Shown: positions 47,701-53,700 of the stretch, in pieces
Layout of the letters: each line of letters starts with the position of its first letter
Numbering within the stretch: position 1 is the stretch's first letter
DNA from: Candidatus Omnitrophota bacterium
GTDB taxonomy: Bacteria > Omnitrophota > Gorgyraeia > Gygaellales > Profunditerraquicolaceae
Assembly: GCA_028712505.1 (NCBI GenBank)
Contig: JAQTQC010000001.1
Coordinates: 77,635-141,634, forward strand
Reading direction: 5' to 3'
Length of the DNA stretch: 64,000 bases
Made by a program: the position numbers

Positions 47701-50700
47701 TCATTAGGAACTTTAGCTCAAGGCTTGATTCTGAATTCCGATTATTTATCACATTGCCGCATATTGCAATATAAGCTTAATCCATTTTCTGCTAAATCAG
47801 GAAATCAAACTGACCGGTTTATTTGTTTTGCGGGAAAAATCATATTAAATACTCCGGATATTGATGTTTATATTTCTAAGGCACAGAATGAATCCGTCCT
47901 ATCTGCCTCGGAATCAAAGTTGACTTTTGATAATGGTATTTGCAGGCTTGAATATAAGTCGGTAGAATTGACCAAAAATAATCATATTTTCACCTCTCTT
48001 TATGCAAACGGGAAATGGCATTTTTCTCATTTAGCGCATTGGGATTTTAAGAAACAAAATGACCATAAGATTATTGCTCTGGGTAGATGGCCGGATTTGG
48101 CTTTGACTCAGGTCTGGGAAATTGAAGTTGTCGATGGCCGTTCTTTCAAATGGGATGTCAACGTAGAAGTCGAGGAAGAACTGGTTATTGAACAGCAGTA
48201 TTTTTTTATTTGCTGCTCAAGCGATTATTCGCAATGGTCCAGTAATTATGGTTCGGGAGTTTTCCCTGCGGATTTCCGGGAGACCGAAATGGATATGTTG
48301 CAAAGATGTCTTCCCGATGGCGAACTCGGATTTTTAAGCCCGGATGCTAATTTACCCGCATTATGGGTGAAATTTTCCAATGAATTCCATAATTACGCCA
48401 AGATCATAAATTCTAGCTTTTACGAAAAAGCGAGACTAATGCGTATAGATAAAGTAGAGCCTGAAAGGATTAAGAAATTCCTCCCCGGAAAATATCCCTG
48501 TTTTAAACTGGCTATTTCTCCGAACGGGAATAGACAAGTATTTGATCCAGGCTCAAATGAGCTTAATGGAGAGAGGTTAAAGTTTATTTTTAACCAGGGC
48601 AGCGGCCGCGTACTTTGGGAAGGGAAGGAGTTGACCAAGAGGATCGGTTTTTACACTTCTTTATGCTCGGGAGGACGCTGGCATGATTCCTCTTCTTCGG
48701 CAAGGTGGAAGGTTGTTGAGAAAAGTAAGGATGTAATTAAAATTACCGGAGAATGGCTGTATTTGCCGATAAGCCAGTATTGGGAAATAAGTTTAAAAGA
48801 AGACAAGTTTATTAATTTCATTATCAGAATGAGTTTAGATAAGGCTTTGGAGGTCGAGGCCCTGCAAGCAAATCTTATGTTGTCGGAAATATATTCGCAA
48901 TGGGCAAGGCAAGGACAGGCACATAGTTTTCCCGGATTCAATAGCAATATTGATGATAAATGGGATGTTATTTTCTCTTGTCCGTCCGGGCCTGGGGGAG
49001 TGGGGGTAGTTAAGGCGGCAGAAAACGGTTTGTTTTTACCTGCGGTTACTTTGTCTACCCAGGAGGAAAACCCGGGGCAGCTCCTTAATGTTGTAAATTC
49101 CGATATTTACCACAGGGGGAGGGTTTTGCAGTGTTCCAGCACAGGTGCAAGAACCCTGGCCGCGGGCGATTACCAGTATTTTAACGGGAAGATATTCTGT
49201 AGTGGCGATTAAATAAAAGGATGATCTAATGTCCTGGTTGAGTTCAATTAAGGTTTTAGGGAGACATTTTAAATTTTACCTATCCCGGGGGTTAGATTAT
49301 CCTTTGGTTTCTCCGGATATGCTGCAGCTTTGTTTTTTATCCCGTTGTAATTTAAAATGCAAGATGTGCAATGTGCAGGAAAAATATGAAAAACTTAAGA
49401 TCTCGGGTAAGACTTACGAATTAGATTTTAAGACAATGCAGGATTTGATATGTCAGGCAGCGGATATGGGGATCAAGCAGTTATTCCTGATCGGAGGAGA
49501 GCCTTTTTTAAGCAGGGATCTGTTCGATGTCATTAAATTTGCCAGTCACTATAAAATGGATACGGTTGTTTTTACGAATGGAACCCTTTTGGGGAACCTG
49601 GAGATTATTGAGAAAACCTTTGACTCTGGGCTACGCAGTCTGGGAATATCTATTGATGGAGCGAATGAAAATACATATAAAAATATAAGAGGCGAAGGGA
49701 TTTTCGAAAAGATTATAGAGAATGTCCGATTGTTCAATAAAATAAAAAAAGACAGGGGGTTGGTTTCTCCCAGTATAAGCATAGCCTGTACGGTTATGGA
49801 TCAGAATATTGAAGAGTTGCTGGATATCGTAAACTTAGCGAAAAGTTTGGAAGTTGATGGAATAGGCTTCCAGCCGGTGGTTATGAATAATACCGATCAA
49901 AGGTTGAGAGACAATCCAAATCAGAATTGGATACCCCCGTCAAGGTATGCTATACTCGATAAGTCTATAGATCAATTGCTGAAATATAAGTGTTCGAATA
50001 AGGAGAACTTTAAATTTATTTATACCGGGTTAGTTCAGCTAAGATCGATCAAGGATTATTTCAAGGGGGGATCGGTTTTAAACAGGCAAAAATGCTACGC
50101 AGGGTTTAACCGGATAATCATTTCGCAGGATGGAAAGGTATATCTTTGCGCTGCCGAGCCGGATAGTGGAGAAGTAAGCTTTGGGGATATCTATAGAGAT
50201 AGATTAAAAGATTTATGGTATTCCGATAAGGCAAGAATTTTCAGGAAAAGCATAAAGAAATGCAGCAATCACTGTCTGCTAAGTTGTGCTCGCAGGGGTG
50301 AGTTCGATAGATTTATGGATGATTTTTATCGCGGCAATTAATAAATTATGCATCTTTCAATAGTTATCCCTACATATAAAAGATATGATTTACTAAAACA
50401 GTGCCTGGATTCTGTGTTGCAACAGGATTATCCTTTAACCGAATACGAGGTCATCGTAGTTGATGATGCCCGGGATAATCAGGTTAAGGCGCTCTTGGAT
50501 CAATTAAAAGAAAAGCATCCAAATCTACAATATATCGCGCAAGATCATCGGGGTCCTGCAGCAGCCAGGAATTTAGGCATCCGTTTTTCTTCCGGGGAGA
50601 TCGTCGGCTTTATTGACGATGATTGTCTCGTAGATAGGGGTTGGGTAAAGCTGATGACCTTGGCGCATCTAAAGAATCCTACGATAGCCGCTGTAGGCGG

Positions 50701-53700
50701 TCTGACTATTTCTGCTACTTCAAAAAGCACGGTTTTGGCCAGCCAGTTCCTGAGCAATTGCAGTATTGCAACCTATTATCAAGGATCTACCCAAGTGATA
50801 TTCTTCCCTACTTGCAATGTTTCGTTAAAAAGGACGATATTCCAAGCCTACCAGTTTGATGAAAACTTTCCCGCTCCAGGAGGTGAAGATTTGGAATTTT
50901 TCTGGAAGTTATTTAAGGACGGACATCGTTTTATCTGGGAAAGAAATATAAAAACTATTCATTACCGTGATGAAACGACTTTAAGTTTTTTAAAGCAGGC
51001 CTATTTTTACGGGATGGGTAACTTTCTAGCCCAGTATTTGCATGGGGATCACCCCCTGCTTAAGGAACTTAAAACAGGGTGGATTTCTTTTTGGCCAGCT
51101 TCATTAATCAATGTTATGAAAATTCCTCGCTTTAGCTGTCTTTTAGGGAGGCGATTAATATCGGAAAGCGATATTAAAGGCAGGTGGAAAAAATTATCTA
51201 TATACGGTTATTTTATTTTGCATAAAGTTTTTTATGTGTTGGGTAATGTTTCAGAGTATGTCCGGACCAGGAAAATTGGCTTGAGGAAAGTGCCAAGAGC
51301 GATCTATATCCCGCGTTTATTCATATTGGACATAACCCATTCCTGTAATTTACATTGCCGTATTTGCGATATATGGAAAACGGGCAAAGAGGAAAAGGAT
51401 ATAGACATCACCCATATTAAGAAAATGCTCTCCGAGGCCAAAAAGCTTAAAATCAAGGAAGTCTCTCTTTCCGGGGGAGAGGTATTGATGAGAAAGGACA
51501 TATTCGAGATTTTTGATTATGCCCGGGGCCTGGGGATAAAAAGATTAGGCGTTTTAACTAATGGAATATTAGTTAAGGAAAATTTAGACAGGTTAAAGCC
51601 TTATCTCATTGACAATACTATATCTCTGGTTATTTCCCTAGATTCTTTAAAACAGGATCTGCATAATCATATCAGGAGCTCGATTTCGGCCTGGCAGGAA
51701 ACCATTGAAGTATTAAAGATGCTTTCTTTGATAAAGAAGGAAAACCCCCAGGTCAATTTTAACGTGATCAGCATAATCCTTAATCAAAACCTGGAAGAAC
51801 TCCCGGAATTAGCCCTCTATATTAAATCAATAGGGGCAAATTCTTTGCAATTCCAGGTGTTATTGTCGAATAACCTGAGGATGTCCGAAAGGAGACAATC
51901 TGATTTCTGGGTTCCTGGGGAAAGGCTCGCACTTCTTGATTTAACAATCGATAAATTAGTAAGCTTTAAAGAAAAAAATCCAGGCTTTGTCAGAAACTCG
52001 ATCAAAAACTTGGAATTAGCGAAAAAATATTACCGGGGGATATTGACTTCTGTCGATGTGCAATGTGTTTCTGCCCGGGATACGGTATTGGTATCAAACC
52101 AGGGAGATTGCACTACTTGTTTTTCAGCCTATGGCGACATGAAAAACAATAAATTAGAAGATATCCTTGGACAGGAAAAAATAGCCAGAAGCCGGAAGAT
52201 GGTTGAGAATTGCCGCTGGCCGTGTTTATTGCCGTGTTTTTGTGATATGGATAATAATTTGCAAAAATAAATAAAGGGAGTCAAATTGAAGTTAGCTTTA
52301 ATCCAGTGTCCTAATTGGACAGTATTTACACCGCCATATAACTTGGCTTTGCTGAAAGCAGTCTGTCAAAAGCGTGGGCATGAAGTTACCTGTCTGGATT
52401 TTAACATAAGATTCTTTAAGTATTTAAATGATAAAGAAAGAAGTGATTTATATAATAAACCTACGGATTGGTTTAGTGACAGTTTTGTCCAGACAGTGAT
52501 TGCTTCTCATTCTGCGTTTGTCGATAACTGTGTTACGGAAATACTCGGTCTTCATTCTAAGGCTATAGGGTTTAATGTCACCGGGCTTAACAGATTTTTT
52601 GCCGAAGAGGTCATTAAAAGAATTAAGACAAGAGATAAAGATAAAATTATATTCATAGGCGGCTCTCATTGTTTCAAGACGGAGATAGGCAAGGTGTTGT
52701 TATATGTCAATCCCGGCATAGACGCTCTCTGTTATTTGGAAGGCGAAAATGTCCTGCCGAATTTATTAGATGTGATTGAACGGGATGGAGAGATAGGTCC
52801 CTGTTCAGGTATCGCCTTTAGAAATAAGGATAATGAAATTATCGATTGTCCGGATCAGCCATTGGTTGAAGATCTTGATTCTCTACCCTTTGCTGATTTC
52901 TCGGATTTTGATGTCGGTGAATACGTTATGAAAGAATTGCCTATTTCTACAAGCAGAGGTTGTATCAACAGGTGTATTTTTTGCAGCGAGTCGAATATTT
53001 GGAAGAAATACAGATCCCGCAGCGCCAAGAACATCTTTGATGAGATAATTTACCAACTTGGCAAGTATCCGTATATTAGTTCATTTTTCTTTAATGATTC
53101 TTTGCTTAATGGGGATTTAAAGGCTTTGGATGAGCTCTGCGATCTTTTGATAAACAATAATATTAAGATTACCTGGGGTGGTCAGGCTGCTATTCGCCAG
53201 TTGATGAATAAGGATTTGATAGAAAAAATGAAAAAGGCCGGATGCTTTCATTTGACCTATGGTTTGGAAAGTGTAAGCCCTAGGATAATGAAGATGATTG
53301 GAAAGAACTTTTCTCCGGAATTAGCTGAGAGGGTGATAAAAGATAGCCAGCAAGCTGGCATAAAAACAGATGTGACCATTATTATAGGTTTTCCCACTGA
53401 AACGGATGAAGATATAATTTCTACCGGAGAGTTTCTTAAGAAAAACAGGCAATTTATCAATGAGATATTCTTTCATTTGCTGGTAATCGCCCGGGGGACC
53501 TATCTTTACGAAAACCGGGATTCTCTGGGCATAGAATTAGAGGATAATTTTAATTCAGTCCGCTGGCATTCTAATAAGGAAGTTAATACTTTAAGTAAAA
53601 GGTTGGAAGTTTTGGATGTTTACAATAGATTTGTCGGTCAGGGGGGGACTGATTTCTACTCTGCCCCAGATTATTACATATACTCTGCTGATAAATGTCT

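Follow-up and report, generated by a model that had tools for sequence, protein, structure and literature searches.

The 64,000-nucleotide stretch of contig JAQTQC010000001.1 from a Candidatus Omnitrophota bacterium (assembly GCA_028712505.1, positions 77,635 to 141,634), referred to here as the window, carries at 50348..52270 on the + strand a gene that joins a family 2 glycosyltransferase (GT2) to a radical S-adenosylmethionine (SAM) enzyme in one polypeptide. Judged by its sequence, the product genuinely belongs to both the GT2 and the radical SAM families, and it stands outside every curated equivalog family. The fusion is probably a bifunctional enzyme of a surface-glycan pathway served by the ATP-binding cassette (ABC) exporter Wzm/Wzt, where it would add a sugar to a lipid-linked glycan and tailor it by radical chemistry. 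Together, the fusion and its operon suggest an unstudied, oxygen-free decoration of surface sugars.

The fusion is encoded by a single ATG-started open reading frame (ORF) of 640 amino acids plus stop, with zero internal stops. The single polypeptide proposed in an earlier note on this DNA is borne out, and the worry that resequencing might separate two genes is settled by duplicate deposits and by homologues, both described below. The protein begins with a GT-A/GT2 catalytic domain (residues 1-247, 50348..51088), followed by a conserved helical region (residues 248-310, 51089..51277; helices 248-257, 259-273, and 279-309) and a variable hinge (residues 311-324, 51278..51319). A radical SAM core (residues 325-520, 51320..51907) and a C-terminal auxiliary Fe-S domain (51908..52267) complete the protein; all these parts are read on the + strand.

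The GT-A hallmarks that had been read from the sequence are in the expected places (IVIPTYKR at residues 5-12, VVDDARDN at 37-44, and DDD at 90-92), and the GT2 profile confirms them. Glycos_transf_2 (Pfam PF00535) matches residues 4-156 (E 7e-29, 101.4 bits against a gathering cut-off of 23.3), and related GT2 Pfam models extend to about residue 247. The second half contains CNLHCRICDIW (333-343), SGGEVLM (375-381), and CRWPCLLPC (622-630). Radical_SAM (Pfam PF04055) matches residues 329-490 (E 6e-22, 79 bits against a cut-off of 29.5), and NCBIfam SPASM-type models (W_rSAM_matur and NirJ2) span residues 325-630. No curated NCBIfam equivalog claims the fusion, every score being far under its cut-off.

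Residue conservation was assessed in an alignment of 63 fusion homologues, all of which match PF00535 (63/63). In the GT2 half, D40, the DxD aspartates D90/D92, and G179-E180-D181 are invariant, E180/D181 being the presumptive catalytic base. In the radical SAM half, C333/C337/C340 (CX3CX2C) and G376-G377-E378 are 100% conserved. The complete radical SAM core described in the earlier note is upheld, with its start at residue 325. Mean identity is 55% in the GT-A domain, 52% in the helical region, 63% in the radical SAM core, and 55% in the C-terminal domain. Both halves are similarly conserved, with the radical SAM core the best-conserved part, and the hinge has a mean identity of 26% and a variable length. 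The GT-A domain also holds three cysteines, C19, C93, and C156, that are 98-100% conserved; one of them abuts the DxD motif (DDDC), which is unusual among GT2 enzymes.

The C-terminal domain carries its own set of conserved cysteines. C573, C591, C622, C626, and C630 are 100% conserved, and C632 is present in 94% of the homologues. The overall pattern is C573-X12-G586-X4-C591 followed by C622-X3-C626-X3-C630-X-C632. Its first part (CX12GX4C) is a SPASM/twitch signature, whereas the second reads CX3CX3CXC instead of the canonical CX2CX5CX3C, and no cysteine lies beyond C632, unlike in the canonical 7-Cys SPASM motif. Pfam SPASM (PF13186) is unmatched by the window fusion at E<=0.01 and matched in 26/63 relatives. 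From its cysteine pattern, it is best described as a twitch-like or divergent SPASM auxiliary-cluster domain, distinct from the canonical 7-Cys form. Of the original radical SAM/SPASM label, the radical SAM part stands, but the SPASM part needs amending on account of the divergent C-terminal motif and the missing PF13186 match.

The AlphaFold2 model of the fusion has a mean predicted local distance difference test (pLDDT) score of 91.4. It places a GT-A domain first, then helices at 211-232, 248-257, 259-273, and 279-309, a hinge disordered at residues 311-316 (pLDDT <50), a partial TIM barrel, and last a small C-terminal domain rich in beta structure. The GT-A half has the Rossmann-like fold expected of it, and the radical SAM half has the partial TIM barrel. 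Structural matches of the GT2 half include the chondroitin polymerase K4CP (score 23.9), WrtF (23.5), hyaluronan synthase (22.7), and TarP (22.4); further matches, Foldseek included, are RmlT, PcManGT, SpsA, and GlfT2 (20.2). The top structural match of the radical SAM half is the sugar-acting enzyme BlsE, at a sequence identity of about 16%, and no single PDB chain spans both halves of the fusion. Anchoring of the fusion by a transmembrane helix was considered and ruled out, as the protein has no transmembrane-grade segment (top 19-residue Kyte-Doolittle mean 1.2).

The architecture recurs widely. A homologue search covered 5.8 billion clusters, and among the best 120 homologues listed, almost every one is full length (about 630-650 aa, 47-92% identity) with the same Pfam pair, the exceptions being three shorter entries (502-620 aa) and two triple fusions of about 970 aa. 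Where their sources are named, these homologues come mostly from Omnitrophota metagenome-assembled genomes (MAGs), and the assemblies are independent. The exact fusion sequence is present under two NCBI accessions (MDD5128146.1 and MFA5224223.1) and at JGI. NCBI names it only ‘glycosyltransferase [Candidatus Omnitrophota bacterium]’, and JGI assigns both COGs. A scan of species-representative genomes yielded 68 loci, almost all from Omnitrophota MAGs and some under Planctomycetes-type or other labels.

Other GT2-radical SAM fusions and their neighborhoods, which the earlier note had proposed to look for, were found in several domain orders and in polysaccharide clusters. Two proteins (P0115 and P0118) are GT2-rSAM-rSAM/SPASM triple fusions, where rSAM denotes a radical SAM domain, and P0121 has the order B12rSAM-GT2-rSAM. 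Over 508 residues, the N-terminus of P0121 shares 45% identity with the B12-binding radical SAM protein encoded next to the window fusion. Additional orders are GT2-rSAM-rSAM (P0146) and rSAM-rSAM-GT2 (P0171). Distant GT2-rSAM(-SPASM) fusions with 26-29% identity sit in other polysaccharide clusters, one of which contains Wzm/Wzt of the Wzt_C type, MurA/MurB-like genes, GDSL, GT2, and GT4, and another a Wzx-type flippase, a DegT aminotransferase, and GT4s. Radical SAM/SPASM and B12-binding radical SAM genes are present in both.

The two modules also occur apart. At one locus (L064), a 318-aa GT2 with the helical region, 36% identical to the GT2 half, is encoded separately from a 388-aa radical SAM protein that is 44% identical to the radical SAM half. 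At another (L073), the gene order is UDP-galactopyranose mutase homologue, GT2, B12-binding radical SAM, and radical SAM. The exhaustive search also yields several GT2-only and radical SAM-only clusters, and the helical region (residues 248-310) is still present in split, GT2-only homologues. Because fusion has occurred repeatedly and independently, in varied orders and within glycan clusters, there is strong evidence that the GT2 and radical SAM modules would share one substrate. In addition to these forms, many giant proteins of 1,000-4,400 aa (P0129-P0268) match the GT2 half and/or the radical SAM half in several places and are thus multi-module GT/radical SAM megaproteins.

Every gene of the locus order described here lies on the + strand, and gaps from 42836 to the window end range from -19 to +35 nt, which indicates a translationally coupled operon. 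In this order are found a UDP-galactopyranose mutase (UGM) homologue (42836..44176), a 496-aa tetratricopeptide repeat (TPR) protein that occurs in a subset of related loci (44173..45663), the ABC-2 permease Wzm (45699..46490), and the 906-aa ATPase Wzt (46492..49212). A 370-aa radical SAM/SPASM protein (rS1; 49229..50341), a semi-core partner, directly precedes the fusion. The fusion is followed by a 513-aa B12-binding radical SAM protein (52286..53827; the orthologue of the P0121 N-terminus), by eight radical SAM genes (53844-55298, 55280-56323, 56320-57282, 57295-58425, 58432-59433, 59441-60493, 60494-61759, and 61778-62920), and by a further one with the motif CNLRCKMC (62913..64000) that runs past the window end. 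Thus, the region 49229-64000 holds twelve consecutive radical SAM-domain genes, the fusion included, one of them B12-binding. These paralogues are mutually 21-34% identical and are therefore ancient rather than products of recent duplication. Most of the stand-alone paralogues share a C-terminal CX3CX3C motif, an unusual ending, and of the window paralogues, rS1 comes closest to the third domain of the triple fusions.

Upstream synteny was counted in 42 orthologous loci that carry the fused form and have 4.5 kb or more of sequence before it. Wzm precedes the fusion in 40/42 loci, the Wzt extension in 38/42, and the UGM homologue in 33/42; an adjacent pair of ABC-2 permease and Wzt/TagH-type ATPase is found in 37-40/42. 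In 25/42, no more than 200 nt separate the Wzt stop from the start of the fusion. Related loci also carry a WecA-type primase (PF00953) and a GT4, and one has a Wzy_C/WaaL-type ligase together with nucleotide-sugar dehydratases/epimerases. In some loci, the fusion is the sole glycosyltransferase besides the primase and a GT4. At one locus (L004, 7864-10032), a 722-aa GH44-like protein of glycoside-hydrolase type, with a faint CIA30 match, is encoded between Wzt and the fusion.

The radical SAM complement differs by locus, from 2 to 8 genes per 22-kb locus. In 36 loci that are 15 kb or longer, the window genes whose orthologues recur most often are rS11 (21/36), rS12 (20/36), and rS1 (19/36), followed by rS9 (13/36), rS10 (11/36), and the B12-binding radical SAM gene (7/36); each remaining window radical SAM gene has an orthologue in 2-6/36 loci. 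To judge by these gene counts, the hub is conserved and the periphery is species-variable, a pattern typical of surface-antigen loci.

The Wzt ATPase is atypical. Its nucleotide-binding domain (about residues 1-250) is followed by an extension of about 650 aa (residues ~251-906), for which a structural model shows three galactose-mutarotase-like beta-supersandwich modules. The extension has no Pfam match, including PF14524 (Wzt_C), and no PDB sequence match. Neither BLASTP self-comparison nor Tandem Repeats Finder on the DNA detected repeats, so the three-module repeat is visible solely in the model. The extension family comprises 73 clusters, all proteins of about 905 aa, on fusion-bearing contigs. 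From the modeled fold, we infer that the extension binds carbohydrate, and it may be a new kind of glycan-reading module on an ABC exporter.

The 446-aa flavoprotein encoded at 42836-44176 bears the Pfam label Amino_oxidase. An ‘amine oxidase’ identity was set aside in favor of full-length UGM homology. The protein matches the Trypanosoma cruzi UGM (PDB 4dsg) over residues 16-443 (E 7.8e-45) and the Aspergillus fumigatus UGM (E 1.5e-34), and with the NCBIfam bacterial UGM model it reaches only 43 of the 304 bits set as cut-off. It keeps what we take to be the UGM signatures, namely the His-loop His, YPFQ, PYNxKxW, FxR, and GRxGxWxY. Its full-length matches identify the predicted protein as a UGM homologue of the eukaryotic type. 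The presence of this gene beside Wzm in most loci is a hint that the glycan contains a furanose sugar.

These features converge on the pathway role proposed above. The GT2 half is likely a chain-extending or chain-capping transferase, given that no other glycosyltransferase is present throughout the loci and that the fusion is in some of them the only one apart from the primase and a GT4, and the sugar it transfers could be a furanose supplied by the UGM-like mutase. The tethered radical SAM domain would reductively cleave SAM, and the resulting 5'-deoxyadenosyl radical would take a hydrogen from the transferred sugar. With the help of the auxiliary cluster(s), the substrate radical could then become an oxidized, epimerized, deoxygenated, or decarboxylated residue. 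Neighboring radical SAM/SPASM and B12-binding radical SAM enzymes would make further oxygen-independent, species-specific modifications, and the beta-modules of Wzt would recognize the finished glycan, which Wzt would export. The earlier note had argued from the fusion itself that a sugar or glycolipid is the target of the radical SAM chemistry. Support for that proposal now comes from the synteny with Wzm, Wzt, and the UGM homologue, the predicted Wzt modules, the structural match to BlsE, the independent or split GT2/radical SAM forms, and the absence of peptide-recognition and precursor genes described below.

Several observations weigh against this reading. No WecA-type primase, GT4, or WaaL-type gene is present within the 64-kb window. 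The residue that presumably corresponds to Arg182 of the A. fumigatus UGM is Val in the window homologue, a loss that leaves its sugar specificity, and with it the furanose idea, uncertain. The long coiled-coil ruler typical of known terminator proteins is not obvious in the fusion. The predicted template modeling (pTM) score of 0.59 and the disordered hinge mean that the model does not fix the mutual placement of the two active sites, and the type of reaction performed by the radical SAM half is not predictable.

A bolder and decidedly tentative extension is that the whole radical SAM array might be an assembly line of up to a dozen enzymes around the GT2-radical SAM hub, rewriting the surface glycan of Omnitrophota, and apparently of some DPANN archaea, at the polymer or lipid-linked stage. 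If true, the array could introduce sugars new to glycans (C-methylated, deoxygenated, epimerized, or C-C- or C-S-linked), and the triple mutarotase-like Wzt reader would check these sugars before export. Such a system would amount to an anaerobic tailoring of polysaccharides resembling that of peptides made on ribosomes and modified after translation (RiPPs).

Four other explanations were weighed against the bifunctional glycan enzyme. In the first, which is unlikely but which the present data do not tell apart from acceptor-side tailoring, channeling would occur on the donor side: the radical SAM half would modify a nucleoside diphosphate (NDP)-sugar and hand an unstable product straight to the GT2. 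However, the many radical SAM paralogues and their variable repertoire suit decoration at the polymer level at least equally, and the radical SAM half yielded no identifiable signature of nucleotide binding.

The second explanation, an improbable one, is lipid chemistry, in which the radical SAM enzymes would modify polyprenol or membrane-lipid tails in the manner of Tes/GDGT-MAS and the GT2 would make a glycolipid head group. The top PDB sequence match of the radical SAM half is indeed GDGT-MAS (7tol, E 2.5e-7), GDSL-type proteins are encoded nearby, and the adjacent B12-binding radical SAM protein resembles HpnJ (E 3e-33 with the NCBIfam model, 115 bits against a cut-off of 578). The expected substrate is also lipid-linked. 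However, the GDGT-MAS match is confined to the cluster-binding N-terminal region, and the gene context is all-carbohydrate.

Third, the locus could belong to a RiPP or glycocin-like pathway, where a ribosomal peptide would be cross-linked by SPASM-type radical SAM enzymes and would receive its sugar from the GT2, in the way of SunS or MftF. SPASM/twitch radical SAM enzymes are mostly peptide maturases, and SuiB, SkfB, and CteB are also structurally close to the radical SAM half. MftF is the second-best NCBIfam match of the GT2 half (E 3e-35). No RiPP recognition element (RRE) domain was found in the fusion, where the GT2 occupies the position before the radical SAM core, or in the stand-alone paralogues, which have 15-53 residues before the cluster motif. 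The operon contains no precursor-peptide gene, and its gaps leave no room for one. With RRE domains, precursor ORFs, and peptide-type transporters all absent, this explanation is very improbable and was rejected.

The fourth and least credible explanation, that the fusion is a frameshift or assembly artefact or has a degenerate, non-catalytic (for example, redox-sensing) radical SAM half, could appeal to the split forms of some genomes but is contradicted by the identical protein in two NCBI assemblies, the nearly uniform full length of the best 120 homologues listed, and the conservation of the SAM-cluster cysteines, the GGE motif, the five C-terminal cysteines, and the radical SAM core.

Two more specific assignments were also rejected. 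An anti-phage viperin identity was discarded, as PADLOC pVip matches are partial, restricted to the core, and score 57-73 bits, and the NCBIfam viperin model gives 53 against a cut-off of 180. A mycofactocin-like identity fails in the same manner (MftF 122 against 280 bits, MftC 54 against 265), and the other mft genes are absent.

The distribution of the fusion may extend beyond bacteria. Three loci labeled Woesearchaeota or Nanoarchaeota (L049, L050, and L062) encode fusion homologues of 611-623 aa with 38-40% identity, each followed by an rS11-like radical SAM gene. In L062, the Pfam ‘Archaeal helicase domain 4’ is matched by a protein encoded 3 kb away, so this contig is probably truly archaeal. 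Their occurrence on contigs assigned to DPANN archaea suggests that the fusion moved between domains among ultra-small organisms. A MurB-like reductase joined to a GT2 (2337-4019) is likewise encoded in L062, adjoining a MurA-like enolpyruvyl transferase (1085-2356), and in L074 (5433-7540) a separate MurA/MurB-like pair lies beside a distant GT2-radical SAM fusion. MurA/MurB-like genes next to GT2 modules suggest lactyl- or enolpyruvyl-ether sugars, and GT2 would here again be joined to sugar tailoring.

Upstream of the operon, the window contains further genes on the + strand with predicted roles in sugar tailoring, namely a WbuX-type N-acetyl-sugar amidotransferase (36963-37964) and a NodU/CmcH-type carbamoyltransferase (38447-40135). 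Two GDSL/SGNH-TPR proteins (40135-41430 and 41423-42742, + strand) complete this upstream set. A second, small set, some 45 kb upstream of the array, is composed of a B12-binding radical SAM gene (37-1488), a GDSL gene (1433-2434), and a radical SAM gene (2457-3554), followed by a 773-aa ORF (3556-5877) without a Pfam match. No orthologues of these two radical SAM genes were found among the fetched related loci. In the window (20788-27823), V/A-type ATPase genes are found upstream of the glycan operon, and the same is true of L002 (1-2695), the orthologous locus that has diverged most. The chromosomal neighborhood is kept beyond the operon itself.

Radical SAM enzymes are well known to tailor peptides, cofactors, lipids, and small-molecule antibiotics. 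No characterized case was found of a radical SAM enzyme in a bacterial surface-polysaccharide assembly line. The fusion offers a clonable entry point to oxygen-independent radical decoration of glycans by anaerobes, and the flanking export machinery and species-variable radical SAM set widen that opportunity. Work on it would also reveal the nature of the cell surface of Omnitrophota, an uncultured but widespread phylum whose cells are very small and probably host-associated, and in which surface glycans likely matter in attachment. New sugar-modifying reactions would be of use to glycoengineers and enzymologists.

Among known systems, the closest parallels on the radical SAM side are BlsE (cytosylglucuronate decarboxylase), DesII, BtrN, and AprD4, which act on sugars. 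These are stand-alone enzymes of antibiotic pathways with small-molecule substrates, and unlike the fusion, none is joined to a glycosyltransferase or encoded in a Wzm/Wzt operon. Among the matches listed for the fusion, the NCBIfam BlsE model does not appear. In the formation of the hopanoid side chain by HpnI (a GT2), HpnK, and HpnJ (a B12-binding radical SAM enzyme), a sugar attached by a GT2 is later remodeled by a radical SAM enzyme. However, HpnI and HpnJ are separate proteins, and the window has no hopanoid genes and a product that would be exported by Wzm/Wzt. MftF and MftC likewise bring a GT2 and a SPASM-type radical SAM enzyme into one pathway, as here, but the precursor peptide, RRE chaperone, and MftD/E homologue of mycofactocin biosynthesis are absent from this locus. 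Galactofuranan systems, such as mycobacterial galactan and Klebsiella galactan-I, combine Glf (UGM) with the GT2 GlfT2 and Wzm/Wzt. To our knowledge, they do so without radical SAM enzymes; in the window, by contrast, the UGM homologue is of the eukaryotic type, and GlfT2 is not the best GT2 match.

The literature searched contains no description of a glycosyltransferase-radical SAM fusion or of a polysaccharide operon with a radical SAM array. The nearest item is an uncharacterized block of radical SAM and glycosyltransferase genes on a Brachyspira plasmid (PMC4267127). The earlier remark that the architecture was not familiar from characterized enzymes holds for structures and literature, whereas at the level of annotation both COGs were already assigned by JGI. 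The architecture is uncharacterized, yet neither rare nor unseen. The protein sequences were already public under generic names, and what is new is the recognition of the system.

A further close comparison is with the modular polymerase/terminator proteins of O-antigen pathways. In ABC-transporter-dependent pathways, polymerization takes place on a polyprenol carrier at the cytoplasmic face, single-module and multi-module proteins mix glycosyltransferase modules with terminating or tailoring modules, and a carbohydrate-binding domain of Wzt often reads the chain-end modification (PMC11231755, PMC9445017, PMC3482155). The Klebsiella pneumoniae O7 ORF6 protein, for example, is composed of a methyltransferase-kinase and two glycosyltransferase modules (PMC11231755, PMC3482155, PMC9445017). 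Unlike these terminators, which use a kinase, methyltransferase, or Kdo transferase, the fusion would tailor by radical SAM chemistry. Unlike O-antigen loci, the window offers up to 11 further radical SAM genes and no evident long coiled-coil ruler, and three mutarotase-like modules of about 650 aa take the place of the single Wzt_C domain. The underlying logic is nevertheless shared with the Escherichia coli O9a WbdA/WbdD and K. pneumoniae O7 ORF6 systems: a glycosyltransferase is fused to a tailoring module within a Wzm/Wzt operon, and Wzt bears a C-terminal extension that, here on the evidence of its predicted fold, would be able to read a feature of the glycan.

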